Assembly: GCA_032718475.1 (NCBI GenBank)
Contig: JAUCBJ010008205.1
Location: 1-64,000 of the forward strand
DNA: 64,000 nucleotides
Source of the DNA: Nemertoderma westbladi
Lineage: Eukaryota; Animalia; Xenacoelomorpha
Direction: 5' to 3'
How positions within the stretch are numbered: the stretch's first letter is position 1; every line of letters begins with the position of its first letter. Below are positions 32,181 through 54,918 of the stretch, piece by piece. The position numbers and the translations under genes were made by a program. The notes under the pieces were generated by a model, which saw only the letters and a program-made list of their open reading frames with translations, was not told the DNA's origin and ran no database searches.

Positions 32181-32489
32181 TATTATTAATTGTAAACATC
32201 ATTGGGAGATGATGAAACAAATTTGATAGAATTTATTAACTATGAATTTAGCTTTTCAACTAATGCTAATAATAAGTTCAGGTTATCATCAGAATAGCTT
32301 TTTCATGCAAAACAGAGTTATCCAATGAAATATGCATTCCCAAAACAACCAATGAGATTCGGGATATGTGGAACAGTCCTCTGTCCAAACACTCAAAGGC
32401 TCGAAATCATAACAACTGCTGAAGTAGGCCTTCTTACTAAACAGTACCCACTGTATTAACCTAATTATATAAGGTAGGTGCTAAAATAC

Positions 32490-32980
32490 ACAACGATCAA
32501 CAAAGAACAAAAATGACCAGCAATGAGCAACAACGAGCAACAACGAGCAACAACGAGCAACAATGAGCAACAACGAGCAACAATGAGCAACAACAAACAA
32601 CAATGAGCAACAACGAGCAGTAATGAAGTACAACAACGAGCAACAATGAGCAATAACGATCAACAACGAGCAACAATGGGCAATAACGATCAACAACGAG
32701 CAACAATGAGCAACAACGAGCAACAATGAGCAATAACGATAAACAACGAGCAACAATGAGCAACAACGAGCAACAATGAGCAATAACGATTAACAACGAG
32801 CAACACTGACTAATAACGAGCAACAATGAGCAATAACGAGCAACAATGAGCAATAACGATTAACAACGAGCAACAATGAGCAACAACGAGCAACAATGAG
32901 CAATAACGATTAACAACGAGCAACACTGACTAATAACGAGCAGTAATAAAGTACAACAACGAGCAACAATGACAACAGCA
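32490..32980. repeat. 10-bp minisatellite (CAACAA[C/T]GAG)n
   Basis: Seen directly; duplicate at ~53762-54252. Confidence 0.95.
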
Positions 32981-33646
32981 ACATGTCATATATTTCATAT
33001 ATTTCATATAACTGAACTTATACTCATACTGAACTTTTAAAACAATATCAATGCAATATGGTGGTAATAATAAAGTTGTGTAGAAACTGTAGAGGCAATT
33101 ATATTTACGGCTTGTTATATTTTATAGCTTGGGCAAAGTACATTCTATAGACTTGTATATTGTATGTAATTAGTACATTATTTGTTCACGATCATTCAGG
33201 TGAAGAGAGTTTTATTCTGTTTGTATACTGTCTAACATAAAGGGTTGGTTTTAGTTTTTGTTATTAACAAGTTTTGTAAGTAGAAAAAGGAGTAATATGT
33301 CTTCACATTCAATTTGTGGAAATTACATTTTCACAACATTTGGAGCCCGATAAAATATACAAAAGAAAATACATTAATATGTATAATTACTTGTGTAATA
33401 ATCAATTGTAAGTCAAAAACTCAAACATGTTTGTCGATACTGTATAACCGCAAAGGGAAAGTCAACAGGCAACCCCATTAATCAAAAGGGTATTTCATCA
33501 CGCAAAGACGATGATGCCTGATCCAAAACCGAGTTGACCAACAACAGCGGGAACCAATGGCAAGAAATTAACAAAACTCGCTAATACAAGAAGCGCCTAT
33601 CGACAACAAGCAACAAACGCAATCAAAGATGTTGGATATATCAATG

Positions 33647-35206: not shown

Positions 35207-36445
35207 TCTCACTTTCTGTTGTTTTTCTGGTTTTTCTCACTTCCATTTTCTGTCTTCCACTTTCTCTCTTCCATTTTCTGAATTCCATTGCTCTTTTCAG
35301 ACTTCCATTTCTTCATTCTGGTTTCCATTTTCTCACTTCCTTTCTCTCTTCCATTTTCTGAATTCCATTTATCTTTTCTGACTTCCATTTCTTCATTCTG
35401 GGTTCCATTTTCACACTTCCTTTTTCTGTCTTCCACTTTCTCTCTTCCATTTTCTGAATTCCATTTCTCTTTTCTGACTTCCATTTCTTCATTCTGGTTT
35501 CCATTTTCTCACTTCCTTTTTCTGTCTTCCACTTTCTCTCTTCCATTTTCTGAATTCCATTTTTCTGACTTCCATTTCTTCATTCTGGTTTCCATTTTCT
35601 CACTTCCATTTTCTGTCTTCCACTTTCTCTCTTCCATTTTCTGAATTCCATTTCACTTTTCTGACTTCCATTTCTTCATTCTGGTTTCCATTTTCTCACT
35701 TCCTTTTTCTAACTTCCATTTTCTGACTTCCTTTTCTCTATTCTGACTTCCATTTCTTTTTTCTCACTTCCATTTTCTGAGTTCCGTTTTCTGACTTCTA
35801 TTTTCTGACTTATGTTTCTCAGTTCTGACTTTAACTTTTTTTTATTCTGACTTCTTTATAGGGCGGCAACGGCGCCCCATAACCTACTCTCTACAAACCT
35901 TCAAAATATAGTTAACCAAGAAAGCAAATAAAGAGAAATTGGGCTACTCGACATACATGTCAATGAACCCCGGACTTCAACGACAGCGTGCATACGATCA
36001 CTGCTAATCTTCTATGGATATTAAGGTATAGCCAAATGTCGCTACAACAGAACACCACGCAATGGGTGGCTATGCCGTTGTGGGGAAGTGGAAGATGAAG
36101 AACACCTCATTTACCATTGATTGTTGTCGATACCAATCCTTACGAGAACGTTTACACGTGAATAAGAATACCAACTCAAATATATCAGACTTCTTCTCTT
36201 CTGACAATGCACCCTGCATTATTTCCCAGTTCTTCCAGAACGAAAGAGCCTTGCTAACCCATAAACCAAACTACTAATAGCAATTAACAATATCATTTAA
36301 CATATATATTTATTACTTACTATAGAATTATATTCCCTAAATGCCGTGGATTTTCAAAATTTTATTTTATTCGAATTAACTTTGCTAAAAGATTACTTTG
36401 AGTCCTCATTTGTATTTGTTTATCTATTGTACGATGTTTAGTCAA

Positions 36446-36534
36446 GTGGTTCAGTAGCTCAGTCGGTAGAGCTTTGGAAATTATATATGTAGTAGGTATT
36501 GAGTTCGAATCCTAGTAAGTGCGAATTATTTTTT
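36446..36534 (+). promoter_or_regulatory. tRNA-like Pol III module inside the LTR (copy at ~50805-50893)
   Basis: GGTTCAG-TA-GCTC-AGTCGGTA-GAGC (intact D arm/A box), GAGTTCGAATCC (B box), T6 terminator at 36529-36534; acceptor and anticodon stems do not pair. Confidence 0.75.
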
Positions 36535-36600
36535 GTGCAGAATTTCAACTCATTTAAATTGACCGCTACAAATTAAATTGCATTTGTTTGTACCTAGATT

Positions 36601-36842
36601 AACCAATGAGACTGTAGTTATTTGATTGTAACCAATGTCGTACAAGTTATATATTAGCTGGACCAATAGCTTTCTTTAAAAACCTGTTAGAACCTATAGA
36701 ACAATCGAGAATTTTCTCGATTGATTGCAGCACAAATTTGCTATATAAAGGTGCGATTTGTTCATTAGTTCACCTAATTCTTCTTGATTCACTATCTTAC
36801 ATTGTTTATTGTATAATAGTTATTATCTGATTTTGTAATAAA
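36601..36842 (+). promoter_or_regulatory. LTR Pol II promoter and polyA signal
   Basis: Three ACCAAT boxes at ~36602, 36631 and 36662 (about 30-bp spacing), TATATAAA at 36742-36749, Inr-like TTAGTT at ~36765, AATAAA at 36837-36842. Confidence 0.65.
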
Positions 36843-38209
36843 AGTTAGAAATACTTGTCACATCTGCCCTTTTCTATCTGTTTTATCATGCTTCACCACT
36901 GTGAACCCAGCTAAGGGACAGGATGGCCGGCTAGAGATCGGGCCGCAGCAATGAACGGGAACATCAAGGGAATGTAGACAGGAGACAACCCGCAATACCA
37001 TCTTAGTTATTCGCCCATCGCCTGAAAGGTTAGACAGCGTTCGATGCCTTGCTACCTAAGCGTAAGACCAAAGATCAAAGGTAGAAGTAGTGACACGCTG
37101 TACGCCTAAAATTACATCTTAGTGACTGTACCGTTTTAATTCAGGAAAAAACCGCAGTAGACCTTCACATTCCTACGGGGGGGGGGGGGGGGGGGGGAGA
37201 GCAGGCAGAGATACTAGTACGCAGATAGGACGTAGGCACACCGGTACAAAGCATACACATTGGTAGGGTGCAGCAAACTGTACGCCTAACTCTTGCTAAG
37301 TACAGGTGCGTTTGCGACTATTTGTAGTACAACGGTGTCCATTGCATCAGAACTTGTAGGCTAGGGGGGTTGCTGTGTTTCACCTGAATTAGGATTGTAC
37401 CGTTCAGGCGGTAGGGCAGTTTATGACTAGGCGCAAATAAATTGAGGCTATTAGGGATATACTAACATCTACCGTGTCCCCACCAACGTCCTGATAGGAA
37501 GTTACCCAGCCTACCTAGGTGACTAAAATTCTAGATAAGAGCCAGGATAGCTATTTGTAACTGTACGCCTACAGTAGTAAACTAACACATTTCTTCTTAG
37601 TATTAGGGACCTGGTACCTAAAATTGCCGAATTCTGGGCGTAGCATTAACTTTATGCCTGAATTTGAGTCCTGGAAATACGCAAGAGGGGAAGGAGCCTT
37701 ATTATTCGTGAGTATTGGCCCTACAAGTTACAAAATTAGAATATTTGTAAAATGCACACCGTACCCAGTAATTATATATGTGAAGGAGCAAAACTGATCT
37801 TGACGGTTCAGAATTAACACACGCGCGTTAGAAATTATTTACACCTCAAAATATATAAAATTAACTTTCGTCCTTACTGCACTTTGCCCGCTAGTTAGAC
37901 ATCTCCAAATCTCTGCACCTAGCTAGCGTCCCTTTCGCCCAACCATATAAATCACACCGTGGCAAAGTATACGAGCCCCTTAGTCCGTCAGTGAGTCAGC
38001 CTGATTTTAGGATTCGCTGCGCGGGATTTTGTTTTATCGAAGTTTGTCTGCTCGTAGACTGTTTTCTGCCTCACCGGTTATAAGAGATCGATACTGCAAT
38101 ATATTCGCTTACTTAGAGTTTACTGTTTTGGTGAGAAGGTCGGATTTATGATTTGATTCACAAACTTTACAGTTAGATATTGCAGGTATTGTTACTGTCT
38201 CTTCTAATA

Positions 38210-38220
38210 GTAGGAATGTG
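38210..38220 (+). other. Non-tRNA primer-binding site, complementary to LTR 37166-37176
   Basis: GTAGGAATGTG abuts the LTR end, lacks TGG, and is the exact reverse complement of CACATTCCTAC. Confidence 0.75.
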
Positions 38221-39070
38221 TTTTACTGAACTACGGTTCGGTAGGACTAAAGTTATTTGAAAATTTTGTATTTTGAGGTAAAAGTTTATATTTGATTAGC
38301 TAAGTGCTAATTTAAAAAAAAAAATAAAAAAATAAAAAATAAAATTTGATTTGAACCGCGTGTAAAATATTTTTGGAATTGAATACCGGTGATTAAAAAG
38401 GGTTTAAATACCATATTGTACCGGCACAAAATAAATAATAAAAAGTTATTTTACCCTGTCGGTAAAATAAGGTACTCTCGATTTGTCCGGTCGTCGATAC
38501 AATTTTGTCCCCTCTGATTTTGTCTTTCCCGATTTTGACCCCGATTTTGTCTTTACCCGATTATGTCCTCTGTGTGTGCATGGTATGTGTCAGATTTGTG
38601 TTTACCGTAGTGTACTTGATTTCGTGAACATCTGTTGAGTACACGTGTACAGGACGGGTAAGTGGTTACTTGTTCCTAGCTTTCGAGCTGGTCAGTATTG
38701 TTGAGGAACGGTGTCCCCTCAATACTGCCGGCGAGGCAGGTGAAAACGTGTCAAAATTCCAATGTTGGGTAGCGCAAGCCCGCTTGGGACAAGACCGTCG
38801 GTTAGGCCCAAGGGCGACCTTGGTGCTCGATCGCTATCGACTGGTCCACCTGCCGGTTGACTCTTTGTTATACTTTGAGTTGGCTCAATGTACAGTCAGG
38901 CCACAGTAAGTTGACAGTAGCCGCCCATCTGGCTACACGTTCGACGAGCTGTGCTGGTGTGATCGGGGGACCGAAAACAGAACCCGGGAAGCATCAGGCC
39001 ACCCTCCGGCCCGGTCTGATAATAACATCTGTCGGACTGGCCCCAGGGGTGGTGGAAAGGTGTCCGCCTC

Positions 39071-42000
39071 GTGGGTGCGCCTCGGGGAGGAGCCCAGAAG
39101 GACACAAGTGATCAGGGAAAAGCGCCAAGAAGGGACATCAACCAGATTACCAACCAAGGACGCGAAACTCTGAACGTTGCCGCGGAAATAGCGAAATTCG
39201 CAGCTAGACAAGGACTACCGGTGCAACAACCACCTAAGTTTTCCGGTAGCTCAAAACACTGGCACACTTTCGTAGACTATATCGAATCTCAGATCGCCGT
39301 GTGCGCCTTTACATCACGGGAGAAGTTTAATTACCTGCTTCAAACGTTGTCAGGAGAACCTAAACGTTTGTCGGAGACCTTCGTTGGTGTACTGGACGCC
39401 TTCGAACTAGCGTACGATCGTTTAACTTCGATCTACGGAGGTACAGTCAGCATGGCCAGGTCAGTGATAGAGGAACTCTGTAAGGGAGGGGCTATTACTA
39501 AACCCGTCGACTTATTAAAACTAGCTGACGAAATAAAGAACGCTATTACTACTTTGAGATCCATTGGACAACTTGACTACGGGAATACCCCTACAGTCCT
39601 ATTAAAGATCATAGGACGACTCCACCATCGACTTCGTCGGGAGTGGAGGAAGATCGAATACCAGCGGGAAGAGCGGGGTGGATTCTTAAAACTGGAAGAT
39701 GTGTACCTTTTGATATCCAGGGAAGCAGTGGTAGAAACTCGATCCAACTACACTGACCAACACATCGTAGCAGAAGGGATCACCTTGCCATCCTCCAACC
39801 GACAAAAACCCCAGACAACATCCACCAAGACGGCCACTTACGCCACACCGACGGAAACCCGACAATTCTCGGACGGTAGTAGGGTATCTGTGCCCATTGG
39901 AATAAAACAGACTAGACAGCAACTCAGTACAGACTTCAGCGGCTGCCAATACTGCGAGCATTTAGGCAAGCGGTATATCGGTCACAAGTTGAGAGGTTGT
40001 CGACAGTTTCGCGAGTTAAACTCGGAAGAACGACGGCTGCAGATACGGCCATTGGACTCTTGTTGGCGGTGTACGCGACACGGACACGTCCGCAAAGATT
40101 GCCCAAATACCGACACTTGTCCATCCTGTGGACGCAACCACGACGGTCTGCTCCACACAGACAGCCACACGCCGACAAAACGCTTCGCCAGGGAACACCC
40201 GGAAGCAGCAGCGAAATGTAATTCGGCCTACAATAATCGAGAATCGAAAACGACTCCAACCTTCGTGACACATATTAAGGATTGCTTCTCAGAACAATCC
40301 GGATCGTCGGACGAAGAGTCAGAAGACGACAACGTATATTCGGATGGAGATGAACAGCCATCGATCGCGCTTCTGATGACTGACCAACTAAAGGGTTTCA
40401 GTGTAATTCCGATTAAGATTACTGGCACAAAGGGGAGCAAGAGAATCTACGCTATTCTAGATTCAGCCTCATCTCACAGCTACGTGGATGAGCAGATAGC
40501 TGATGTCGTGACGGATCTCAGACAAGGTAAGCGCGTCAGTTACACCGTAAGTAGTATGCACGGACAACGTGCAATACCAGTGACACGAGTTAAGTTAAAC
40601 TTAGACACTCTTCTTCCGAAATCGCAACACAGCGAAAAGGAGAGGTCTTTGTTACCCTTTAAGGATTTGACTTTTGCGGCCACCAAGGACTTTAGTAACC
40701 TACTAGGTCCTGTCCCAGAACAATCCTTGGAGGACCGTAAGTATTTCAGACACCTTGGTGTACCTGAATGTCCTGTCAATTACAGATCAGTAGCAATGCT
40801 GATCGGGACAGATCAATTCAACCTACATCAAGTGTGGGAAACCAGACCATCGGTAGTCGTAGCAGGAAACGCATACGCCTGTAGAACGCCGATAGGGTGG
40901 TATACTCGAGCGCCTGTGCGCACACTAGACATAAGTGACGAGGAAGACGATGTACAAAGTACATGTAGTTTATTAACTACAAATTCAATTCATTCCTTTT
41001 CACACGACGTGGACCATACTACCTTACATACAAAACACGACAGACGTGTAACTAGTATGATAAGTCACAAGGAGCAGCTAATCCACCAGGTGAGTTTAGA
41101 ACTTGGGGAGAAGACGAGTCAGCCAGAGATTCCATCGACGACAGATGATAACGCCGGAAGGCTTGCGAGTCTACCTACACCAATAACCTCAACAATGCCC
41201 GTCAATATCGATGACTACGCGTTAAGAAACCATCAAGTGGAACAAGCTGCATTGGACAAAGAATTAACGGAGAAGACTATCAGGTGGTTAGAACAAGATA
41301 CAGCCGAACCTGGTAGCTACGAACCATGTATGTCGGAACAGGAGAAACAATCTTTGAAGATCATGGAAGGTACTATCCGCCAGACGAAAGACGGACATTA
41401 TGAGGTAGGGATGTTATGGCGTAGCCAAAGTCCTAAACTCATAAATAACTACCTGTTAGCTTTAAAACGTCTACACTCAATACGACAACGTCTATTAAAG
41501 GACGAGAAAGCCCATCTGCAGTATAACTCTCAGATGGAGACATATTTGACCAAGGGATACGCTATCCGAATGACTAACCCGGAGATAGTGACTGACCAAA
41601 CATATTACTTGCCACATCACTTTGTGAGACACCCCGATAAACCAGACAAAGTATGTGTAGTCAATGACTGTGCGGCTCTGTTTGAGGGAATGTCCCTCAA
41701 TAGTGAGTTAATGGATGGACCAAACATGAATAATTATCTTATGGGGGTGATTATGCGCTTCCGTCAGCGTCAAGTAGCTTTTACTTGCGACGTTGAAGCG
41801 ATGTTTCACCAAGTGAGAGCGTTAGAGCGAGACAGAGACAGTTTGAGGTTCCTCTGGTACCCGGAAGGAGACTTAAGTCTACCACCGCCGACTTACCAAA
41901 TGCAAGTTCGCGTTTTCGGTGCCAGGGACAGCCCAAACTGCACGATGTACGCCCTAAAACAAGCCGCTAGGGATCAGAAACATTTATATGACCCAGAGAT

Positions 42001-43921
42001 AATTAAAATCGTAGAACGTGACTTTTACGTCGACGATGGTTTACAGAGTTGTGACACAGTAGAACGTGCTACAACAGTAGCACATCAATTACGGGACTGC
42101 TTAGCGGGCGGAGGTTTTAACCTCACCAAATTCGCCTCAAACAGTGCCGAATTGGTAGACTCATTCGGAACGACTGAGCGTGGGGGTGGTGACATAGACC
42201 TAGAGTTCGAACCACTACCGACGACCAAGGTGTTGGGGCTCTTTTGGGACCCAAACACGGACAACTTTCGAGTGAAAGTGAGACTGGACAGTCAAGAAAA
42301 CACACTGACAAAGAGATCATGCTTGTCAAAATTGAGCCGATTGTTCGATCCATTAGGATTCATCAGTCCAATAATAATACTGCAAGCCCGAATTTTTATG
42401 CGCAGTATTTGGAAGGATGGACTGACATGGGACGAGCCGATCTCATCAGACCAAGTGGACTTATGGAAAACCTGGGAGGCAGAATTATCTTCGCTAGAGG
42501 ATTATTCCATACCCAGAGTCTACTTTCCATTACAAACGACATTTTCTGACAACTTGGAATTACATTGTTTTTCCGACGCTAGTGACAACGGCTTTGGTGT
42601 GGCAGCGTACTTGCGCAGACAAGTAGACTCAGAAGAATTCGATGTTTCGCTCATTACTTCTAAGGCAAAAACAATGCCTACTAAGTATATGACGACACCA
42701 CGAGCTGAGCTACAAGCCGCAACCCTGTCAACCACAATCGTGAACCTTATACAGACAGAACTACAGTCAAGTTTACAGATATTTTATTGGACTGACGCGA
42801 CGTTGGTTTTATTTTACATAAACAACGACACACTTGAATTCAAGACATTCGTAGCTAACTGTCGCGCAGAAATTCTAGACCGTTCAATAAAAGAGGATTG
42901 GCGACATTGTCCCGGACCACAAAACCCAGCTGATATTGCGTCGCGAGGAATGATGCCTGAAGAATTCTGTAAACCGGAGAACAAAGAATTTTGGCAACAC
43001 GGACCCCAATTCTTGCAGAAATCGACACTATATTGGCCGCCCTTATACGACAACAAGTCTAACACTATCCCTAAAGATGCGGAAATTAAAAAACCAAAGA
43101 AAGGGAAAGCAAAGAAAAAGACAGCGGCCAAACTTAAGAAAAAACCGAAGGCGAAATGGAAAGATATAACTTCAAAGGTCAAGAATGGAAGACTTGCGAG
43201 CCTTTCTACACCAGACATATCGCCAGACGGTCAACCAGACACGTTACTAGACAGTCAACCAGACATTTTGCCAGACATATCACAAAATGTTCCACCAGAC
43301 ACTAGTAACATATTGACAAATAGTGAAGCCGCAGTTTCTCTATTGGAGCGGCCTTCTATTGACAAACAACCAGATACGTTACCAGACGTATCGCCAGACA
43401 CGTTACTAGACGGTCAACCAGACGTTTTGCCAGACACGTCATTAGATATTTCGCCGGATGTTCCGCGAAACATTTTACCAGACATGTCACAAAATGTTCT
43501 ACTAGACACTAGTAACATATTGACAAATAGTAAAGCCGCAGTTTCCCTATTGGAGCGGCCTTGTATTGACAAACTACCAATTTTGACACACTTGAGCAAC
43601 CATAAGCACGGTGAAACCTCATGTATTACGGATGTGGGTAGTACCTACGCTAATGTAAATACAGGTGTTACTCTGCGCTCAAGAGACATACCAAACTTGC
43701 AACCTATGGTGAGACCTGGGATTAATATCGGCAGAAAATTAAGTTTACCGAAACCCACTGACCCCATAGAGTTCAAACCACCATTAACGATCGACTTACA
43801 AAGTACTGACAATCAAGGTAAGAAGACGAAGAAGGACAAATTACTTGTAGACCCGGACGGATCAACAGTCAACAAGGGAATACTTACCGGCGGACCCGTG
43901 GGCCCTTCTAGTAAATCATAA
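39071..43921 (+). CDS. gag-pol: BEL/Pao Gag-protease-RT-RNase H polyprotein (true start uncertain)
   Basis: PKFSGSSKHWHTF..EKFNYL (gag); triple knuckle ending HDGLLH; AILDSAS (PR); YYLPHH, CDVEAMFHQV, FYVDD (RT); LHCFSDAS, PRAEL, YWTD, NPADIASRG (RH). Confidence 0.96.
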   Translation: MGAPRGGAQKDTSDQGKAPRRDINQITNQGRETLNVAAEIAKFAARQGLPVQQPPKFSGSSKHWHTFVDYIESQIAVCAFTSREKFNYLLQTLSGEPKRLSETFVGVLDAFELAYDRLTSIYGGTVSMARSVIEELCKGGAITKPVDLLKLADEIKNAITTLRSIGQLDYGNTPTVLLKIIGRLHHRLRREWRKIEYQREERGGFLKLEDVYLLISREAVVETRSNYTDQHIVAEGITLPSSNRQKPQTTSTKTATYATPTETRQFSDGSRVSVPIGIKQTRQQLSTDFSGCQYCEHLGKRYIGHKLRGCRQFRELNSEERRLQIRPLDSCWRCTRHGHVRKDCPNTDTCPSCGRNHDGLLHTDSHTPTKRFAREHPEAAAKCNSAYNNRESKTTPTFVTHIKDCFSEQSGSSDEESEDDNVYSDGDEQPSIALLMTDQLKGFSVIPIKITGTKGSKRIYAILDSASSHSYVDEQIADVVTDLRQGKRVSYTVSSMHGQRAIPVTRVKLNLDTLLPKSQHSEKERSLLPFKDLTFAATKDFSNLLGPVPEQSLEDRKYFRHLGVPECPVNYRSVAMLIGTDQFNLHQVWETRPSVVVAGNAYACRTPIGWYTRAPVRTLDISDEEDDVQSTCSLLTTNSIHSFSHDVDHTTLHTKHDRRVTSMISHKEQLIHQVSLELGEKTSQPEIPSTTDDNAGRLASLPTPITSTMPVNIDDYALRNHQVEQAALDKELTEKTIRWLEQDTAEPGSYEPCMSEQEKQSLKIMEGTIRQTKDGHYEVGMLWRSQSPKLINNYLLALKRLHSIRQRLLKDEKAHLQYNSQMETYLTKGYAIRMTNPEIVTDQTYYLPHHFVRHPDKPDKVCVVNDCAALFEGMSLNSELMDGPNMNNYLMGVIMRFRQRQVAFTCDVEAMFHQVRALERDRDSLRFLWYPEGDLSLPPPTYQMQVRVFGARDSPNCTMYALKQAARDQKHLYDPEIIKIVERDFYVDDGLQSCDTVERATTVAHQLRDCLAGGGFNLTKFASNSAELVDSFGTTERGGGDIDLEFEPLPTTKVLGLFWDPNTDNFRVKVRLDSQENTLTKRSCLSKLSRLFDPLGFISPIIILQARIFMRSIWKDGLTWDEPISSDQVDLWKTWEAELSSLEDYSIPRVYFPLQTTFSDNLELHCFSDASDNGFGVAAYLRRQVDSEEFDVSLITSKAKTMPTKYMTTPRAELQAATLSTTIVNLIQTELQSSLQIFYWTDATLVLFYINNDTLEFKTFVANCRAEILDRSIKEDWRHCPGPQNPADIASRGMMPEEFCKPENKEFWQHGPQFLQKSTLYWPPLYDNKSNTIPKDAEIKKPKKGKAKKKTAAKLKKKPKAKWKDITSKVKNGRLASLSTPDISPDGQPDTLLDSQPDILPDISQNVPPDTSNILTNSEAAVSLLERPSIDKQPDTLPDVSPDTLLDGQPDVLPDTSLDISPDVPRNILPDMSQNVLLDTSNILTNSKAAVSLLERPCIDKLPILTHLSNHKHGETSCITDVGSTYANVNTGVTLRSRDIPNLQPMVRPGINIGRKLSLPKPTDPIEFKPPLTIDLQSTDNQGKKTKKDKLLVDPDGSTVNKGILTGGPVGPSSKS

Positions 43922-45478
43922 CCTTCCAAATTCTCCATTGACTTACCTGATGACGTCACAAATACTTACGTCGACCGTATTGTAAACTTAACAGACTCTT
44001 GGACAAACGCTTGCCGAAAATTAGCGTGGATTGTACGTTTTGTACAATACGTTAAAGGCAAACGAGACTTTACACGTCGACTTACATTGACTGAGATTGA
44101 CAGGTGTGAGATTAAATTAATTCGCCATTACCAACTGCGATATTTCACGCGCGAATTCACATCTATAAGTCAAGGTCAACCAATCAAGTCGTCACCAATA
44201 CTGAGTTGGAGTCCGATAATTTATAATGGCTTAATTTGTCATAAATCTCGGCTTCAAAACATTGACTTTAACACAAACTTTAGGTACCCAATAATAATAC
44301 CGCAACATCACGAACTACAACGTGCAATGATACTGGACGCACATTTACATCTGAAACACGCTGGAAGACACCACTGTCTTTCCTACTTACGTACAAGATT
44401 TGTATTAATTAGACCCAGTAAAGCGTTAAGTTCAGTGACACGTACGTGTATTATTTGTAAAAAGGTACATTCTAGAATAGGTACCCAAGAAATGAGTGAA
44501 CTTCCACAAGCACGACTTCAAGCATTCAGACCACCTTTTACAGAGACTGGAATTGATTGCTTTGGTCCCATTCATACGAAACGTGGACGTATACTAGTAA
44601 AACGCTGGGGACTGATTTTCACATGTATGTCCAGTAGGGCAGTTCATATCGAACGTGTGATGGATCTTTCCACCAACGCGTTTATACTAGCATTGCGGCG
44701 ATTTATCGCTAGACGCGGACTAGTGAAATGCTTGTACTCAGACCAAGGTACAAACTTTGTTGGTGCTCGAAATGAGATTGCTAGAGCCTTTAAGAAATTA
44801 GATCATGATCAAATCTCGAACGAACTACAACCTCACAAGATTGTTTGGAAGTTTAATCCTCCAGATAGTCCATGGAGAGGCGGAGTCTGGGAGAGATTGA
44901 TTAGATCTATAAAGACAGCCATGGCAAAGGTCATTCCAGTAAACCACATATTGACAGACGACCAACTGACAACACTGTTTGTTGAAATCGAGGCAATACT
45001 AAATACTAGACCAATAGTATTAGTACCCGATGACAAACAATCTCAGTTTGCTTTGACACCGGCACACCTGCTTATGCAGGCACCGACGACTTTGACGCCT
45101 ATTTCTATTCCAATAGAAAGCGATAGCTACGGTAGAAAAGCGTGGAAAATCACGCAACTACTGGCTAACAAATTCTGGGAAATATGGCAAAACCATTATT
45201 TGCCCTCTATTTCTGCCAGAACAAATTGGTACAATAACACCCGCGCATTAAAGCCGGGAGATCATGTGCTGTTAGCAGAAGTGAATCTAAAAAGACGCTT
45301 CTGGATAACAGGTGTAATTTTAGCCACACATCCATCTATGGATGGAGTGACAAGAACTGTGACAGTACGGACAATTGACGGTCGTACAGTAGACAGACCG
45401 ACTCAACGTCTCATACTTCTTGAAGAGACTCGTAATGAGTCTGGAGACTACAAATCTCCAACTAGTATTAGTAAATAA
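43922..45478 (+). CDS. BEL/Pao integrase, same frame as the upstream ORF and separated by one TAA
   Basis: HLHLKH..CIIC zinc finger; GIDCFGP, SDQGTNF, GGVWER (D,D,E); LTPAHLL; C-terminal LKPGDHVL..DGVTRTVTVRT. Confidence 0.95.
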   Translation, partial: PSKFSIDLPDDVTNTYVDRIVNLTDSWTNACRKLAWIVRFVQYVKGKRDFTRRLTLTEIDRCEIKLIRHYQLRYFTREFTSISQGQPIKSSPILSWSPIIYNGLICHKSRLQNIDFNTNFRYPIIIPQHHELQRAMILDAHLHLKHAGRHHCLSYLRTRFVLIRPSKALSSVTRTCIICKKVHSRIGTQEMSELPQARLQAFRPPFTETGIDCFGPIHTKRGRILVKRWGLIFTCMSSRAVHIERVMDLSTNAFILALRRFIARRGLVKCLYSDQGTNFVGARNEIARAFKKLDHDQISNELQPHKIVWKFNPPDSPWRGGVWERLIRSIKTAMAKVIPVNHILTDDQLTTLFVEIEAILNTRPIVLVPDDKQSQFALTPAHLLMQAPTTLTPISIPIESDSYGRKAWKITQLLANKFWEIWQNHYLPSISARTNWYNNTRALKPGDHVLLAEVNLKRRFWITGVILATHPSMDGVTRTVTVRTIDGRTVDRPTQRLILLEETRNESGDYKSPTSISK

Positions 45479-46141
45479 TTAGGAGTTTACAAATAGATTT
45501 CCACGTACCTGTACACCGTAGTAAGGACAGCGGTAGAATTCCATTGTCTTTATATGTGAACATTGAGGGTAGTACCCTTATGTGTCACATAGGAGCGGGA
45601 TTTGTAGGTATAAGAAATGGAATTCTACTTGGAACTCACAATATTGAGACATTTTCGAAATTTTAGACAATCCATTTGGATTTGAAAATTTTTTTACAAT
45701 TTTCTCCAGTGAATAGATTTCAGGGTACAGTCGGGTGGAACTTAAAATTAGAGAAACAAGAGAGGAAGACTTGCGAGCCTTTCTTAAAATTTTAATTAAA
45801 TTTTACACGGTCTTGTTTCAATAAGTTACGTCAATAAATAGACTCCCCTATATTTATTACTAATTCTTGACTGCTTATTTTCTGATAATAGTTTGGGATC
45901 AAAAGGTGAGTATTTTAGACTCACAGCCAGTTTAGCCCAAATTCGTTTTTTATTTCGGCAAAAAATTTTAGATAAGAAGCAGCGTGTCATTAAAGAAACC
46001 CTAGATCTTAGGCTATGGGTAGGAGGTTAGAGCGTTGTCAAGCCCAATGGGCAGACGAAACTCTCACGTCTCCTCACAACTAACTACAAACTCTGTTGTA
46101 TTCCCTCTAGTAGTAATGATTATGTAACTACACCTCTAATT

Positions 46142-49100
46142 ATGGAGAAAGGGATACAAGGAGAGCCGAGATGGGGATATGATATCCAAGAGGAGGCAGC
46201 AGCGCCATTCGAAAGATTTGGAGCCAAGGACTACACTATATTTGGTATAAAAGAATTATCAGAAAGTACTGCAAAACTCGCGAGAACTAAATATGACTCA
46301 AATGTATTAAAGAGAAGACAAAACGCATTAAATGAAAGAATCGAAAGTTTGCGCAAAACCTTCAATGAACTTTACCCGTACGACGCTTTGTGTGATACGG
46401 GAGACATTAGCAAAGACCCCGATACTGAAATTAGTCGTTTGTATCATACCATGCAATACCTAAAGGCGCACGAACCTATGCCCGCAGTACGAGATGAATT
46501 CGATGGAATGCACCTTTACAGACGAACTCGAGGGGACGATAGAGAAACCAAGGAAGCATTTTCAGTTTATAAACTTTATTATCAATGCGGTTCTTGTATG
46601 CGCGAACAACGAAATGCGATTCCGATGCGTTTGAATAAGGAAAATCCCGAACCGATATTGGCGAGGTGTTCGAATCATCAACAACTACGCTACCAGGAAG
46701 GAGGGTATCCTTTATCGAATCCATATCATTCATTTGCTATGACTGGACCAAAGGTGGGAGAAACTGTCATTTACCCACCTAAGGTTGTTGAACCCGATGT
46801 ATTTGAACTTACGCTGGACGAGGCGAATCAGTCAACCCGCGAAAAGAAAGAAGCTCTTAGCCTATACAGAGCCTACAAGGTTTTCGAGAAAGGTGAGATG
46901 GAAGAATGGGGCGGAAGACTCGCGAGCCTACCTTACCATTGGACGTCACACGATCAAACTCCAGCTAAGGAGATGACACCGGAAGTTTTCGAGAGCATAA
47001 ACTTTGCTCAAAACGTTATTCAGAAACTACAGATTGCATCCCCGGAAAGGACAAGAGAAATGCAACCATATAGTACTTCAACTACAAAACCATTGAGTAC
47101 GACACTCAATTTTCCTATTAGTATACCAGTCCGACAGGATACGACGTACGAAATACCCATCGTGGATCATCCAGAAATCATTTCAAACTTGGAGTTTCTT
47201 CCTGCAGTTGTTTTCAGCGATATGAGTAAGATATATGATTTACGTAGACATATTACTCAAAAGGTCGTGTACAACGTTCCACCTCATATTCAAGACTTTA
47301 AGGAACTGGATAGAGCTGGTGCCGATATAGCTGAGAGTAATTTGAAAGGATATTTAACCAAGACGATTCGTTTATGGATTAGAATCGGAACCTTCGAGTC
47401 GGATACAGATATTGCCGCGGATTGGCGAGGTAAGGTTATTCGTTTCGAAGATGATAAGGACATAGAGAAGATTTGGCAACCTTCGGAAGAATTGTTGGAT
47501 GAATGGAATAGGACGTTTAGATCGTTCCAGGAAAATGGTTACATGTTTTACGATAACGAGGGCGGCAGTCATCAACAGAGTTTGACTTCTAAGACTATAC
47601 AAATTAGAGCGGCGGACGGAGTCCTGCACGTTTTCAGTAGACAGAGGAGCGACAAACGAATGCCGATACCTCCAGCAAATACAAAGCGACACCATCTCAT
47701 CACTGACATAGTAAAGAAGATGGACCAAGCTTGTAATATCGACGCTAGAATGCTACCGAAGATGGTAAGAAACATGATTTTAGATAAAACTGTTGTAAAG
47801 ATTGGATCAGGAGTAAGGGAGGACTTAATTAGCGACTTCGCCGGCATGACGGACAGCGATGACCGACTACCGACACCTTACGTCGACACTCGACCTCTTA
47901 TTTTGTGGTCTATAGAACAGGGATATTTTCGTGAGTATAATACTCAGAAGACTGGAACCGGATACATTTCCTACCTGTTATTCAATTGGGATTATAAGGA
48001 AAGTAAGAGAACCAAGTATATTGAGACTTGTGGAGAAGGTGATACTCCAGATATGAGTGAGTTTGAATCACAGCTTAAATGGAGAGGATGCGTGTATTGG
48101 GCTATTACATCACCTCCAAGAGCGGTCTTACAATATTATTTAGCAATAGAGTCGTCAGTGAATGTTTGCTTAATCGCCGACATTGTGTCTCGGACTCTCA
48201 AAAGACATCCACTTTGTCTCGGAGAAGATCATACGTTCTACATGGAAGGGAGAATTCATACCGACGTGTTTAGACGATTCCTTGAACCCTTCTACAACTC
48301 CGACGCTCAGTGTAATGCCTTTACTCGAGCAGGATTTAGTATATTTCGAGACGTGTATCTTCGCTGTGCGGGATCTCTTATCGAAAGACCATCTATGTTT
48401 ACATTGTTACCCTATGAAGGAGAACGTATCGTGGAGATTACGGAAGAATCACGGCAGACGCGCGCGCCTATCGGTCACCTTGGTGATGATTTCGAAGTAA
48501 CTACTACGATCACTGACGATCCTTTAGAGGAACTTCTTGAGATAGAAAGGAACCTCCCGAAGAAATCTCAGACGGAGATTCGACAACTTGAAGCAACAGA
48601 TGCTATAGTTTGTATACAACCCTCAGAAACCTACCAACCCATAGACCCAGATGATTATGATTATAGTGTGGGAGGAAGCGCTCGACTGATTGGAGATCTT
48701 ATATACGAACGAGTGTGGTACCCTGCCAATACGATGTGTGGTAAATGTGGCGTCGCTGGACATCATATGACAAATTGCAGTGGAAAGCACATTACTACGA
48801 CTCAGCTAATCTGTGGATGGTATGGAGATCAAGGGTCTCATACCTTTTATACTTGCTGGAGATTTATGGCTCAATGTACTTATTGCAATATAAAAGGGCA
48901 TCGAGCATCTGAATGCCAACTAAGAGACATACCTTATGAACACGAATCTGTAAAACTCGTGAGAAAATTATTCGATGAGTGGGAAGATTTAGCCGACGAA
49001 CATGTATCGGCACAAAGAAGACGATTTCCGATGAGGGCGCATCTTGGATTTTGGGCGGTAAATCCCCAAACGATGATGTCGGAAGGATACATCTCCGCTA

Positions 49101-49867
49101 TGCCCCAATATGACGAACTTATCGAGGTAGTCGATATTTTGCCCCACGACAGTGGATTCCGAGTAGTGCGCGAGTATCTATTACAGATTCACCCGGATAA
49201 CAAAAACACGTGGAATTTTCCGAAAGTCGTTAATCGCATCACGTATGGTGAATTTGATCGTTTCCGAACTGAAAAGCGGAATAAAGGAGCTTGGTTAACC
49301 GTCGCATGGGCGTACCGAGCCGCGTTTTACCACAAACGTATACGAGCGAGCGTATTCGAAGAAGAGGAGGTCCTAGAGGCGACAAATATACCAGCCACTC
49401 CGGTTGCGCCGTCTGCACGTCACCCTCGGGAGGACGGACAGGGTAGGATCATACGGGTCCAGAAAGTGAGCCAACAATTAAAGAAGTCTATTAATATAGA
49501 AGAACGCAAGGGAGCTGAGCCGACCATTCGAATTACTCGGGATACGGTATCACTTCCTAGAGAACCAACAGGAGGATCGGGACACACACCAGCTGATCAA
49601 AAGGGGGCGCAAGCTACTCTTGGGTCTGCGTCGTCCGCTTCTCGCGCATTCCCAGACGTTCTACCAACTGTAGTGACAACTGATCGGTCACAAGGAATCG
49701 GTCGAGGTTTTGGGATGCCAAATAGACGAATTTGCGAGGAAATAGTCGCACCGTCTCTCAACGTCCAAACGAAACCAGTGACTCGCCCCACGAGTCCCAT
49801 ATCGCGAGCAAAGTCACCTGTGCGCAGTTTTCGAGGACGCGGCAGGGCTCGATCCACTAAGCGATAA
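46142..49867 (+). CDS. Extra ORF: DnaQ/DEDD (WRN/RNase D-like) 3'-5' exonuclease plus three CCHC zinc knuckles
   Basis: ExoI GYMFYDNEG (47537-47563), KTIQIRA..LHVF, ExoII ILDKTVVKIGSGVRED..YVDT, ExoIII-like QYYLAIE; knuckles CGKCGVAGHHMTNC, CGWYGDQGSHTFYTC (degenerate), CTYCNIKGHRASEC; basic RG-rich tail; no TM or signal peptide seen. Confidence 0.85.
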   Translation: MEKGIQGEPRWGYDIQEEAAAPFERFGAKDYTIFGIKELSESTAKLARTKYDSNVLKRRQNALNERIESLRKTFNELYPYDALCDTGDISKDPDTEISRLYHTMQYLKAHEPMPAVRDEFDGMHLYRRTRGDDRETKEAFSVYKLYYQCGSCMREQRNAIPMRLNKENPEPILARCSNHQQLRYQEGGYPLSNPYHSFAMTGPKVGETVIYPPKVVEPDVFELTLDEANQSTREKKEALSLYRAYKVFEKGEMEEWGGRLASLPYHWTSHDQTPAKEMTPEVFESINFAQNVIQKLQIASPERTREMQPYSTSTTKPLSTTLNFPISIPVRQDTTYEIPIVDHPEIISNLEFLPAVVFSDMSKIYDLRRHITQKVVYNVPPHIQDFKELDRAGADIAESNLKGYLTKTIRLWIRIGTFESDTDIAADWRGKVIRFEDDKDIEKIWQPSEELLDEWNRTFRSFQENGYMFYDNEGGSHQQSLTSKTIQIRAADGVLHVFSRQRSDKRMPIPPANTKRHHLITDIVKKMDQACNIDARMLPKMVRNMILDKTVVKIGSGVREDLISDFAGMTDSDDRLPTPYVDTRPLILWSIEQGYFREYNTQKTGTGYISYLLFNWDYKESKRTKYIETCGEGDTPDMSEFESQLKWRGCVYWAITSPPRAVLQYYLAIESSVNVCLIADIVSRTLKRHPLCLGEDHTFYMEGRIHTDVFRRFLEPFYNSDAQCNAFTRAGFSIFRDVYLRCAGSLIERPSMFTLLPYEGERIVEITEESRQTRAPIGHLGDDFEVTTTITDDPLEELLEIERNLPKKSQTEIRQLEATDAIVCIQPSETYQPIDPDDYDYSVGGSARLIGDLIYERVWYPANTMCGKCGVAGHHMTNCSGKHITTTQLICGWYGDQGSHTFYTCWRFMAQCTYCNIKGHRASECQLRDIPYEHESVKLVRKLFDEWEDLADEHVSAQRRRFPMRAHLGFWAVNPQTMMSEGYISAMPQYDELIEVVDILPHDSGFRVVREYLLQIHPDNKNTWNFPKVVNRITYGEFDRFRTEKRNKGAWLTVAWAYRAAFYHKRIRASVFEEEEVLEATNIPATPVAPSARHPREDGQGRIIRVQKVSQQLKKSINIEERKGAEPTIRITRDTVSLPREPTGGSGHTPADQKGAQATLGSASSASRAFPDVLPTVVTTDRSQGIGRGFGMPNRRICEEIVAPSLNVQTKPVTRPTSPISRAKSPVRSFRGRGRARSTKR

Positions 49868-50679
49868 AAGGGAGGGTAAGGGTGGACGGAAGACTCGTGA
49901 GCCTTTCTTGTGAATTTGTGATTTATTTGAATTATATGTTTTATATTTAGTAAGTTTTGTATTCTGGAAAACTCATATTTAGTAAGAATTATATTTAGTA
50001 AGATTTATATTTAGTAAGATTTATATTTAGAAGGAAGTTATATTTTGCAAGATTTATATTTTATATTTGTGATTATTCCGAACTTATGCAATTTATATTG
50101 TTCCGAATATTATGCAATTTATATCTTATAAGCAGTATTCGTATTTACAGTGAAATAGAAAGTAAGAGTAGATGGAAGACTCGTGGGCCTTTCTTATAGT
50201 TTCATTTGTAAAGTGTTATATTTTGTAAGTTTTATAGTTAGTAAGTTTTGTGCTTAGAAAGACTCATATTTGTAATTATTCCGAACTTATGCAATCTACA
50301 TTTAGGCACGAAAGTATTTGTAATTATTTGAATTTATGCAATATTTGAGATGCAATAGTAGATGGAAGACTCGCGAGCCTTTCTTATTGTTTTCATTTAT
50401 TTGTATTTGTAATTGTTTGAATTTATGCAATATTGAGATGCAATAGATTTATATTGGTGAATTTAATTTAGATTTATATTGTACTTACTTAGTAAAGCCT
50501 TAAATACGTAAAGTTTGAATTTGTAATTACTTTTGTATCGAATCATTATGTAGAAAGGAAGTATTGTTTGAAATTTAATTGTAAATATGTAAGTACGCCC
50601 TAAGTATTCTATAGTTTGATTGATTATTGGTGAAAACCGTATATTTTATGCACGATAATATCCTGTTTTCATGGAGCGG

Positions 50680-52574
50680 TATAGAATTATATTCCCTAAA
50701 TGCCGTGGATTTTCAAAATTTTATTTTATTCGAATTAACTTTGCTAAAAGATTACTTTGAGTCCTCATTTGTATTTGTTTATCTATTGTACGATGTTTAG
50801 TCAAGTGGTTCAGTAGCTCAGTCGGTAGAGCGTTGGAAATTATATATGTAGTAGGTATTGAGTTCGAATCCTAGTAAGTGCGAATTATTTTTTGTGCAGA
50901 ATTTCAACTCATTTAAATTGACCGCTACAAATTAAATTGCATTTGTTTGTACCTAGATTAACCAATGAGACTGTAGTTATTTGATTGTAACCAATGTCGT
51001 ACAAGTTATATATTAGCTGGACCAATAGCTATCTTTAAAAACCTGTTAGAACCTATAGAACAATCGAGAATTTTCTCGATTGATTGCAGCACAAATTTGC
51101 TATATAAAGGTGCGATTTGTTCATTAGTTCACCTAATTCTTCTTGATTCACTATCTTACATTGTTTATTGTATAATAGTTATTATCTGATTTTGTAATAA
51201 AAGTTAGAAATACTTGTCACATCTGCCCTTTTCTATCTGTTTTATCATGCTTCACCACGGTGAACCCAGCTAAGGGACAGGATGGCCGGCTAGAGATTGG
51301 GCCGCAGCAATGAACGGGAACATCAAGGGAATGTAGACAGGAGACAACCCGCAATACCATCTTAGTTATTCGCCCATCGCCTGAAAGGTTAGACAGCGTT
51401 CGATTCCTTGCTACCTAAGCGTAAGACCAAAGATCAAAGGTAGAAGTAGTGACACGCTGTACGCCTAAAATTACATCTTAGTGACTGTACCGTTTTAATT
51501 CAGGAAAAAACCGCAGTAGACCTTCACATTCCTACGGGGGGGGGGGGGGGGGGGGGGGAGAGAGAGCAGGCAGAGATACTAGTACGCAGATAGGACGTAG
51601 GCACACTGGTACAAAGCATACACATTGGTAGGGTGCAGCAAACTGTACGCCTAACTCTTGCTAAATACAGGTGCGTTCGCGACTATTTGTAGTACAACAG
51701 TGTCCATTGCATCAGAACTTGTAGGCTAGGAGGGTTGCTGTGTTTCACCTGAATTAGGATTGTACCGTTCAGGCGGTAGGGCAGTTTACGACTAGGCGCA
51801 AATAAATTGAGGCTATTAGGGATATACTAACATCTACCGTGTCCCCGCCAATGTCCTGATAGGAAGTTACCCAGCCTACCTAGGTGACTAAAATTCTAGA
51901 TAAGAGCCAGGATAGCTATTTGTAACTGTACGCCTACAGTAGTAAACTAACACATTTCTTCTTAGTATTAGGGACCTGGTACCTAAAATTGCCGAATTCT
52001 GGGCGTAGCATTAACTTTATGCCTGAATTTGAGTCCTGGAAATACGCAAGAGGGGAAGGAGCCTTATTATTCGTGAGTATTGGCCCTACAAGTTACAAAA
52101 TTAGAATATTTGTAAAATGCACACCGTACCCAGTAATTATATATGTGAAGGAGCAAAACTGATCTTGACGGTTCAGAATTAACACACGCGCGTTAGAAAT
52201 TATTTACACCTCAAAATATATAAAATTAACTTTCGTCCTTACTGCACTTTGCCCGCTAGTTAGACATCCCCAAATCTCTGCACCTAGCTAGCGTCCCTTT
52301 CGCCCAACCATATAAATCACACCGCGGCAAAGTATACGAGCCCCTTAGTCCGTCAGTGAGTCAGCCTGATTTTAGGATTCGCTGCGCGGGATTTTGTTTT
52401 ATCGAAGTTTGTCTGCTCGTAGACTGTTTTCTGCCTCACCGGTTATAAGAGATCGATACTGCAATATATTCGCTTACTTAGAGTTTACTGTTTTGGTGAG
52501 AAGGTCGGATTTATGATTTGATTCACAAACTTTACAGTAAGATATTGCAGGTATTGTTACTGTCTCTTCTAATA
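50680..52574 (+). repeat. 3' LTR (1895 bp)
   Basis: Direct repeat of 36321-38209, preceded by a short PPT-like ATGGAGCGG. Confidence 0.97.
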
Positions 52575-53254
52575 CTTACTGTATGTCATATTAGTTTATT
52601 TGTATTTATCTGTATTTATTAGTACTCAACAATATATCATATATTATGATTTACAACGTATTAGTTTATTTGTTTAGTTATTTATTTATCATATATTCAT
52701 CGTATCCATGTATTCACATCGTCACATTTTGTTATCATGTATTCATCGTCACATTAGTACTTGACTTTACATTAATTTATTTGTATTGACTATAGTTATT
52801 TGTATTACTAGTAACTATATATTCATCATCACATCCTGTATTATTTTAGGAACATAGTTTATATCTGCACATAATGTCAGTACATTGCAATTAGTAAATT
52901 TATAAGTAAGGTCTTTGTTCACACTACATTCTCCTTATATATATTTCCCGTTTATAATCTTCATTTGAACTGATCCCTTTATAAATTGTTTATTTATAGT
53001 AATACAGTATGTTTTAGTACCTAGAAGGTGAATTAACTGTTTATTATATTATTGTTTGTACTGTTCCTTAAGTAGTCAATTATATACACACATGCATACA
53101 TACATACATATGGGATCAATTCAATACAAAGTGAACCCCAATTAACACTCATGCAATCATATAAGAGTTGTCAATAATTCTAAATGATATATTTGACTGT
53201 AATATTATATATATGTATTGAGTACATTTATTATGACCACATCCTTAAACTAAC

Positions 53255-53463
53255 CCTAATATCAATGACTAGGTTGTAATCTTTTAGAATATCATCTCTT
53301 GCATTGATCTCTGCCAGTCCGAATTCGACGCCATCTGACACGGATTTGGAACTCCAGACGTCTCCAGACATAGATATCAGCCCTCCCAACCTCACTTCGG
53401 ACTTTTCTCCGCTTGTACATAATATATTGTAAATCTTTAGCAGTATGTGAGTGAGACACATAA
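53255..53463 (-). CDS. Duplicate class C GPCR/GABA-B-like exon
   Basis: Same as 31972-32180 with one Y>S change (GGLISMSG). Confidence 0.75.
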
Positions 53464-53761
53464 TATTATTAATTGTAAACATCATTGGGAGATGATGAAA
53501 CAAATTTGATAGAATTTATTAACTATGAACTTCCTAGCTAATAATAAGTTCAGGTTATCATCAGAATAGCTTTTTCATGCAAAACAGAGTTATCCAATGA
53601 AATATGCATTCCCAAAACAACCAATGAGATTCGGGATATGTGGAACAGTCCTCTGTCCAAACACTCAAAGGCTCGAAATCATAACAACTGCTGAAGTAGG
53701 CCTTCTTACTAAACAGTACCCACTGTATTAACCTAATTATTTAAGGTAGGTGCTAAAATAC

Positions 53762-54252
53762 ACAACGATCAACAAAGAACAAAAATGACCAGCAATGAGC
53801 AACAACGAGCAACAACGAGCAACAACGAGCAACAATGAGCAACAACGAGCAACAATGAGCAACAACAAACAACAATGAGCAACAACGAGCAGTAATGAAG
53901 TACAACAACGAGCAACAATGAGCAATAACGATCAACAACGAGCAACAATGGGCAATAACGATCAACAACGAGCAACAATGAGCAACAACGAGCAACAATG
54001 AGCAATAACGATAAACAACGAGCAACAATGAGCAACAACGAGCAACAATGAGCAATAACGATTAACAACGAGCAACACTGACTAATAACGAGCAACAATG
54101 AGCAATAACGAGCAACAATGAGCAATAACGATTAACAACGAGCAACAATGAGCAACAACGAGCAACAATGAGCAATAACGATTAACAACGAGCAACACTG
54201 ACTAATAACGAGCAGTAATAAAGTACAACAACGAGCAACAATGACAACAGCA
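53762..54252. repeat. 10-bp minisatellite, duplicate copy
   Basis: (CAACAA[C/T]GAG)n. Confidence 0.95.
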
Positions 54253-54918
54253 ACATGTCATATATTTCATATATTTCATATAACTGAACTTATACTCATA
54301 CTGAACTTTTAAAACAATATCAATGCAATATGGTGGTAATAATAAAGTTGTGTAGAAACTGTAGAGGCAATTATATTTACGGCTTGTTATATTTTATGGC
54401 TTGGGCAAAGTACATTCTATAGACTTGTATATTGTATGTAATTAGTACATTATTTGTTCACGATCATTCAGGTGAAGAGAGTTTTATTCTGTTTGTATAC
54501 TGTCTAACATAAAGGGTTGGTTTTAGTTTTTGTTATTAACAAGTTTTGTAAGTAGAAAAAGGAGTAATATGTCTTCACATTCAATTTGTGGAAATTACAT
54601 TTTCACAACATTTGGAGCCCGATAAAATATACAAAAGAAAATACATTAATATGTATAATTACTTGTGTAATAATCAATTGTAAGTCAAAAACTCAAACAT
54701 GTTTGTCGATACTGTATAACCGCAAAGGGAAAGTCAACAGGCAACCCCATTAATCAAAAGGGTATTTCATCACGCAAAGACGATGATGCCTGATCCAAAA
54801 CCGAGTTGACCAACAACAGCGGGAACCAATGGCAAGAAATTAACAAAACTCGCTAATACAAGAAGCGCCTATCGACAACAAGCAACAAACGCAATCAAAG
54901 ATGTTGGATATATCAATG

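Follow-up and report, generated by a model that had tools for sequence, protein, structure and literature searches.

In a 64,000-nt stretch of the genome of Nemertoderma westbladi (assembly GCA_032718475.1, contig JAUCBJ010008205.1, positions 1-64,000, forward strand; hereafter, the window), a BEL/Pao retrotransposon of 16,254 bp (16.3 kb) carries an additional open reading frame (ORF) between its integrase and its 3' long terminal repeat (LTR), whose product very probably contains a DEDDy exonuclease domain of the EXD2/WRN type followed by zinc knuckles. The extra ORF is real and represents an old accessory gene of BEL/Pao elements; a one-off capture is contradicted by a distant BEL/Pao lineage that keeps the gene, under purifying selection, in the corresponding position. 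The reading that we tentatively prefer, at somewhat less than an even chance, is that of a conserved BEL/Pao accessory gene whose product would be an RNA-binding 3'-5' exonuclease, likely active, that acts on RNA of the element itself. What appears to be new is the kind of accessory gene that distant BEL/Pao lineages keep under selection, an EXD2-type exonuclease joined to knuckles; DEDDy ORFs in retroelements were themselves already known.

Gag and Pol, sometimes together with Env, are generally considered sufficient for an LTR retrotransposon. The extra ORF occupies the env position, starting 663 nt past the integrase frame and ending 812 nt ahead of the 3' LTR. Its translation yields 1241 residues and one stop (the frame from stop to stop spans 46031-49867), bearing out the intact 1241-codon frame reported in an earlier note on this DNA (hereafter, the original prediction). 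The chance of an open frame as long as this is about 5e-34 at the local base composition, which rules out a chance ORF, and the five remaining frames over the same interval contain 49-86 stops. All the motifs named in the original prediction were located in the protein (CxxC at residue 149, YDNEG at 470, IQI at 486, ILDKTVVKIGSGVRED at 546 and YLAIE at 666), and it was also right in finding no envelope features: a 19-residue hydropathy scan of the 1241-aa protein detected no hydrophobic or membrane segment (maximum mean 1.38), and with no transmembrane-grade hydropathy an envelope protein is ruled out.

The exonuclease assignment is carried by a profile of the five family sequences, namely the window protein, a homologous protein designated P0002, and the products of three BEL/Pao relatives (L001-L003) described below. 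Among 177,635 PDB sequences, human EXD2 (6k17) was the sole match of this profile below E 0.1 (E 4.7e-5, 25.7 bits), the remaining four of the five listed matches being nucleocapsid knuckles at E 0.4 or worse. The profile aligns the ExoI D-x-E and the ExoII Asp at the spacing of D108, E110 and D171, the EXD2 residues given in the available text of PMC6648332. In the window protein D471, E473 and D561 are invariant across all five family sequences, and the ExoI D-x-E ends a hydrophobic strand. A search of the ESM Atlas placed 24 of 30 matches in the PF01612 set (best score 0.92, to be read against shuffled proteins, which reach 0.9 in 4-10% of cases), the top three being unnamed clusters. Further weak independent signals came from a DnaQ model over residues 467-530, which cover ExoI (E 0.093), and from the comparison of P0002 with PF01612 (E 0.2). 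The family-profile match to EXD2 supports the original claim that knuckles are fused to an exonuclease of the DEDD type, related to WRN and EXD proteins. We regard the EXD2/WRN-type DEDDy fold as highly probable, and catalytic activity of the predicted exonuclease as probable, with less assurance.

Several observations weigh against the assignment or the reading built on it. No single family sequence passes the Pfam cut-off for an exonuclease, and an alignment restricted to the domain gave a weaker match to EXD2 (E 0.0049). AlphaFold produced models with a pLDDT (predicted local confidence) of 31 from a single sequence and 36 from two sequences, too poor to show a fold; Foldseek/VIA searches with the second yielded nothing at E 0.001 or at a Z of 5 and above, a result that is uninformative given the quality of the model. 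ExoIII was placed by eye, outside the matches of the hidden Markov models (HMMs), as Y666/E670 in the window protein, Y-x3-E in P0002 and Y-x3-D in L001-L003; the HMM matches stop short of it, and the invariant column of the MAFFT alignment holds Y665, not Y666. The ExoIII-like YLAIE of the original prediction is thus present at residue 666 but reads Y-x3-E, not Y-x3-D, and the last ExoIII acid is Glu in both the window protein and P0002. A literature search retrieved no paper on the tolerance of Glu at ExoIII. In addition, EXD2 and WRN also cut DNA, so that the subfamily leaves the substrate undecided.

Protein searches returned few homologues. HMMER over 1.84 billion representatives gave a single match, P0002 (E 1.7e-4), a protein that has the part order of the window protein: exonuclease-like block, acidic linker, three knuckles, W-G-F segment and basic end. 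Word-index searches returned none of 5943 candidates for the window ORF, none of 2153 for a two-sequence profile and, with P0002, only itself among 7989, longer and shorter length classes lying outside these searches. PDB searches with the window ORF, its N-terminus, the two-sequence profile and the L001 domain were blank. When metagenome contigs were pattern-scanned with the window protein and P0002, four of 187 matches were confirmed (L001-L004); the scans found no relative among viral contigs, none of 52 pattern matches in prokaryote genomes was confirmed, and phage records gave none.

All four confirmed contigs are BEL/Pao sequence with the same gene at the same place. In L001-L003, gag-pol (Peptidase_A17, E ~1e-46) is followed by an ORF of 757-784 aa (L001 7928-10231, L002 6050-8320, L003 8024-10375), the element of L003 being ~10.8 kb long. 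L004 is 98% identical to L003, and the relatives form three subfamilies, 72-78% alike, of one lineage. Since the ExoII block formed part of the search pattern, the way in which L001-L004 were selected accounts in part for its conservation among them; matches outside the pattern comprise D-T-R, T-G, R..Y..G..PD, the knuckles and W-G-F. With a profile from P0002 and L001-L003, residues 535-638 of the window protein scored 31.1 bits (best of 500 shuffles, 3.5), and with a knuckle profile the protein scored 13.5 versus 10.2 for shuffles, a weak margin. The relatives are 32-33% identical to the window element in reverse transcriptase (RT)-RNase H and 29-30% in integrase, which falls within the range between superfamilies of BEL/Pao (26-39% similarity, versus 37-64% within them) given in the available part of PMC3118150, and the exonuclease sequences are 21-26% identical across three lineages. 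The original prediction had set its reading apart from a recent one-off capture of a host gene, and such a capture is rejected here, the gene and its position being shared by two BEL/Pao lineages that are distant from each other.

The ORF is also present in other copies of the window family, as expected in the original prediction: when the element is divided into 30 bins, all 30 are covered by contigs from three DNA sequencing runs, which belong to three studies. The family-copy pieces analysed are a sample, 32 listed of more than 28,000. Among those listed, ORF pieces showed 67 differences and no gap over 1887 nt, 182 differences and two gaps over 981 nt, and 125 differences and three gaps over 645 nt, and a piece over the N-terminal Cys motif showed 45 differences and no gap over 284 nt; spacer pieces had 11 gaps in 393 nt and 22 gaps in ~250 nt. 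Because the listed ORF pieces differ mainly by substitutions, sister subfamilies 15-19% apart appear to keep the ORF with few gaps. As a point against the preferred reading, two deletion joints (46281-48314 and 46297-48426, in contigs of two runs) reveal copies without the N-terminal and exonuclease parts in which the knuckles are kept.

Selection was measured on L001-L003 only. For the exonuclease, the ratio of nonsynonymous to synonymous substitution rates (dN/dS) was 0.09-0.14, rising to 0.14-0.21 for the knuckle region and to 0.38-0.42 for the tail, indicating purifying selection on the relatives' exonuclease rather than the neutral drift that would have spoken against the original prediction; for RT-RNase H it was 0.035-0.048, with dS near saturation. 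At the protein level the three are 87-90% identical over the exonuclease; RT-RNase H stands at 82-85% and the integrase core at 87-89%. Conservation of the domain on a par with integrase would suit an enzyme of core replication no less than a counter-defence, and to that extent weakens the reading we prefer. The dS of the ORF (0.6-0.8) was lower than that of pol (2.6-2.9); module swapping is not claimed from this difference, much of which is explained by the strong bias of the ORF in the GC content of third codon positions (GC3; 0.81-0.90 versus 0.61-0.70 in pol).

A separate transcript of the extra ORF from its own promoter is likely, because a TATA box and a TTAGT word ~25-30 nt downstream are conserved in the pol-ORF spacers of all three relatives. 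Further conserved non-coding blocks, including a GC-rich one, lie in these spacers (L001 7358-7930, L002 5452-6052, L003 7356-8026), with a CG-repeat block near the pol stop. The higher GC3 of the ORF than of pol in the relatives likewise speaks for separate expression. Less favourably, codon bias is absent from the window ORF (GC3 0.40), which is preceded by a weaker TATA-like word only.

Outside the exonuclease, the homologues share a part order of exonuclease, acidic linker, three knuckles, conserved segment and basic tail, and all five proteins carry at their C-terminal end a K/R-rich stretch resembling a nuclear localization signal (NLS). Of the three CCHC knuckles originally described in the window protein, the first (866-879) and third (912-925) are regular C-x2-C-x4-H-x4-C, whereas the second (891-905) lacks the second Cys ligand. 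Pfam searches of the whole ORF and its parts detected only sub-threshold zinc knuckles; the knuckles of P0002 matched HIV nucleocapsid at E 1e-4 and Air2 at E 0.064. The N-terminal region gave no usable match in PDB, the Atlas (430 aa), Pfam or the loci of the relatives. The ORFs of L001-L003 have a long RS/RP-rich tail.

According to the preferred reading, the exonuclease would be made from its own promoter, apart from Gag-Pol; the knuckles and basic tail would pick element-derived RNA, whose 3' ends would be trimmed or cleared by the exonuclease, and less element RNA would reach host silencing and decay pathways. Mut-7/Nibbler, EXD1 and Egalitarian have roles in small-RNA and RNA transport pathways. 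RNA is favoured as the target because of the nucleocapsid-like knuckles, the basic tail, the NLS-like end in all five proteins and the synthesis apart from Gag-Pol; EXD2 itself cuts RNA with Mg or Mn, according to the available text of PMC6648332. An RNA substrate, with action outside the particle, probably in the nucleus, and with the knuckles and basic tail selecting the RNA, is a possibility to which we give not quite half of the weight. The more specific proposal that a knuckle-steered EXD2-type RNA exonuclease with its own promoter destroys silencing triggers or small-RNA precursors in BEL/Pao elements of distant animal hosts, and that in the window lineage it may have allowed the loss of the tRNA primer, is somewhat unlikely.

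The strongest competitor, unlikely in our view, is that the knuckles bring about packaging of the protein along with the genome and that, while reverse transcription proceeds, it edits the ends of DNA or RNA:DNA as a proofreader or end polisher. The nearest solved relative, EXD2, cuts DNA with Mn (available text of PMC6648332), the knuckles look like those of nucleocapsid, the domain equals integrase in conservation, and the elements are long, as seen both in the window and in L003. Dada DNA transposons moreover carry a DEDDy domain for which 3'-end processing is proposed in the accessible portion of PMC3706591. On the other hand, a separate gene with its own likely promoter would not tie the amount of protein to that of RT, and BEL/Pao elements in general replicate without the gene, the main text of PMC3118150 containing no mention of an exonuclease.

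It is quite unlikely that the protein is instead an RNA-binding adaptor with a weak or dispensable nuclease site, routing element RNA to assembly or to the germ line. In Egalitarian and EXD1 the nuclease site is weak or dispensable. EXD1 and Maelstrom are described as inactive DEDD derivatives that still bind RNA (PMC5408684), and an adaptor would suit both the several RNA-binding parts of the protein and the Glu that ends ExoIII in two of the five sequences. It is harder to reconcile with ExoI and ExoII acids that stay invariant over three lineages at 21-26% identity, or with the regular Y-x3-D in the other three sequences.

Still less probable is that the domain is not an exonuclease at all, or that a host gene of the same layout was captured and is carried along as a passenger. 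The lack of a fold model and of any sequence reaching the Pfam cut-off leaves room for the former, but the EXD2 match agrees at the level of motifs. As for a passenger, P0002 has no known context, and protein libraries are thin for animals (the L001-L003 proteins were not returned), so that a host gene could be missed; yet the same gene and place recur in two distant BEL/Pao lineages under purifying selection, and 1.84 billion representatives yielded one match and no host-like homologue.

BEL/Pao elements usually have TG...CA LTR ends and a tRNA-type primer-binding site (PBS). The window element departs from both, with TA...TA ends and a PBS lacking a TGG start, and its BEL/Pao assignment stands regardless; its relatives, unlike it, have TGT starts and a tRNA-type PBS. 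The 11-nt self-complement noticed at the PBS by the original prediction is real: 38210-38220 pairs with 37166-37176 and with 51525-51535, and a match of at least 11 nt occurred in 2 of 3000 simulated LTRs, that is, beyond chance. The complement sits 845 nt into the 1.9-kb LTR with a run of ~20 G directly after it, and the LTR contains 18 initiator-like words, among them one at 37165. The window element may be considered a candidate for self-priming. In L001, L003 and L004, the three relatives with a visible 5' end, which L002 lacks, the PBS starts with TGG and is of the tRNA-Lys type (in L001 it agrees at 13 of 13 nt with the tRNA-Lys1,2 PBS as given in PMC1084362), and the LTR self-complement reaches at most 4 nt (LTR sequence of 138-298 nt). 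Because these three carry the gene together with a tRNA-Lys-type PBS, the gene does not go with self-priming; the expected co-occurrence of gene and self-complementary PBS fails in them, and primer trimming as the general job of the protein finds no support. Production of the primer from an LTR transcript that is shortened as far as the 11-bp PBS duplex, the lead idea of the original prediction, would account for the above-chance complement and for the missing TGG start, but it is highly improbable in view of these relatives and of Tf1-type self-priming, which in the available text of PMC4600332 proceeds from an mRNA 5' segment and cleavage with no extra gene. A co-opted primer role may exist in the window lineage alone.

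Features of the window element and of the extra ORF (positions in the window)
Feature	Position	Strand	Basis or remark
Left copy of the 5-bp target-site duplication	36316..36320	+	right copy 52575-52579
5' LTR, 1889 bp, TA...TA ends	36321..38209	+	self-comparison
LTR 11-mer complementary to the PBS position, then a run of ~20 G	37166..37176	+	
PBS position, no TGG start, pairs with the 11-mer of its own LTR	38210..38220	+	
gag-protease-RT-RNase H frame	39026..43921	+	Pfam DUF1759, zf-CCHC, Peptidase_A17
Integrase frame	43922..45478	+	Pfam Integrase_H2C2, DUF5641
Spacer between pol and extra ORF	45479..46141	+	candidate internal promoter (putative): TATA-like word 45849, splice-donor-like word 45905
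Extra ORF, 1241 aa	46142..49867	+	translation
N-terminal 450 aa with CxxC..C..H	46142..47491	+	absent from distant homologues
Predicted EXD2/WRN-type DEDDy exonuclease domain	47504..48211	+	D471, E473, D561; Y666/E670 by eye
Three zinc knuckles, second degenerate in the window copy	48737..48916	+	
Post-knuckle segment, W-G-F/Y-like motif common to all homologues	48917..49141	+	
Low-complexity tail, R/K-rich end	49409..49864	+	
3' LTR, 1895 bp	50680..52574	+	

By its domains, the element carrying the extra ORF is a BEL/Pao LTR retrotransposon, because Pfam found DUF1759 (1.7e-10), Peptidase_A17 (4.6e-42), Integrase_H2C2 and DUF5641 (1.3e-21), with the integrase last. Its two LTRs are 98.8% identical by self-comparison (16 substitutions and one 6-nt indel), and the element is young. 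It is flanked by a 5-bp target-site duplication, and a paralogous empty site lies near 31290, in a neighbouring segmental duplicate. The duplicate belongs to a ~5 kb tandem segmental duplication (30377-36321 and 52567-56479), in whose second copy the element is inserted, the first having the empty site. The TA...TA ends of the LTRs (36321-36323 and 52572-52574; TAT/ATA inverted) were set by this site and the target-site duplication. An in-frame stop (43919-43921) splits RNase H from integrase in the window copy, as a copy-specific break or a read-through site; gag-pol is one continuous frame in L001 and L002. The RT word DFYVDDG is found in 11 family sequences of the PMC3118150 supplement, six of six looked up being Sinbad, which hints at Sinbad through one short shared word of 7 residues and does not amount to a placement; the RT word STLVDD of the relatives is absent from the same supplement file.

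Other observations concern the flanks of the genes and the rest of the window. The LTR contains a tRNA-like stretch with box A and box B look-alikes (36447-36523, and its 3' LTR copy), which received no ARAGORN or Rfam call and gave no cloverleaf when folded. The region 3' of the extra ORF (49868-50679, 812 nt) is AT-rich, contains 16-nt repeats as well as a short motif that occurs three times, and shows many small deletions among family copies. Elsewhere in the window, 22035-23231 (-) holds an RT fragment of another, probably non-LTR, element (RVT_1 3e-17, DUF6451), and 58741-59442 (-) a frame of 233 codons which, judged by eye, looks like part of the gag of a different LTR element.

Until now, the DEDDy ORFs of rotifers were an oddity of one phylum; they had no known role, and their variation within the genome was close to neutral. 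The present gene, probably for an exonuclease of another subtype and fused to knuckles, occupies one and the same position in two BEL/Pao lineages with RT-RNase H sequences that are only about one third identical. Shared in this way by two lineages, and as conserved as integrase in one, the gene would belong permanently to the life cycle of certain BEL/Pao elements, and it offers a concrete protein to assay. If the exonuclease reading is true, these elements own an RNA-trimming enzyme. Acting on RNA, the protein would be a candidate enzymatic counter-defence against small-RNA silencing and, should silencing triggers be what it destroys, a retrotransposon-encoded enzymatic suppressor of RNA silencing; acting on DNA, it would be a proofreader for the retroelement RT, which has none. 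Our literature search, which covered titles and the starts of abstracts and left Repbase and most subscription journals outside, found no paper on an exonuclease ORF in BEL/Pao or on a fusion to knuckles, and few belpaoviruses have an env-like gene according to the available part of PMC11599104.

The finding can be set beside four known systems. The PBS of the window element resembles that of Tf1/Tj1 in being complementary to the element's own LTR; those are Ty3/gypsy elements, described with no extra gene in the available text of PMC4600332, whereas here the complement lies deep within the LTR. Terminons and Dada transposons with a DEDDy exonuclease are reported in the accessible portions of PMC3706591 and PMC6431247. 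The Dada elements of Laccaria and Ectocarpus are likewise mobile elements that took up a DEDDy exonuclease, but there, in the same portion of PMC3706591, the domain lies inside the DDE transposase of a DNA transposon. With human EXD2 (6k17) and WRN, the family shares the ExoI D-x-E, the LP..l..D..v.KvG...D block and the subsequent D-x-R word; the resemblance is distant (25.7 bits), the alignment does not take in ExoIII or the dimer segment, and the matched EXD2 chain forms a domain-swapped dimer without knuckles.

The closest parallel in a retroelement, described by Rodriguez, Kenefick and Arkhipova in 2017, is found in bdelloid rotifers, where the LTR elements Juno and Vesta, together with Terminons, carry DEDDy ORF3s with a DEED motif, whose function is not shown and for which the authors propose RNA 3'-end processing; no BEL/Pao case is among them (PMC5408684). 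Juno and Vesta are the LTR carriers there, sharing ORF3 with Athena/Terminon, and BEL/Pao is the carrier here; the rotifer proteins are RNase D-like, with a DEED motif and no knuckles described, whereas in the present family the third acid is Asp in all five sequences, the fourth is Asp or Glu, and the nearest structure is EXD2. The rotifer ORF3 and the extra ORF nevertheless agree in what appears to be the same arrangement, a separate gene for a DEDDy 3'-5' exonuclease placed 3' of pol and without a membrane segment (PMC5408684).

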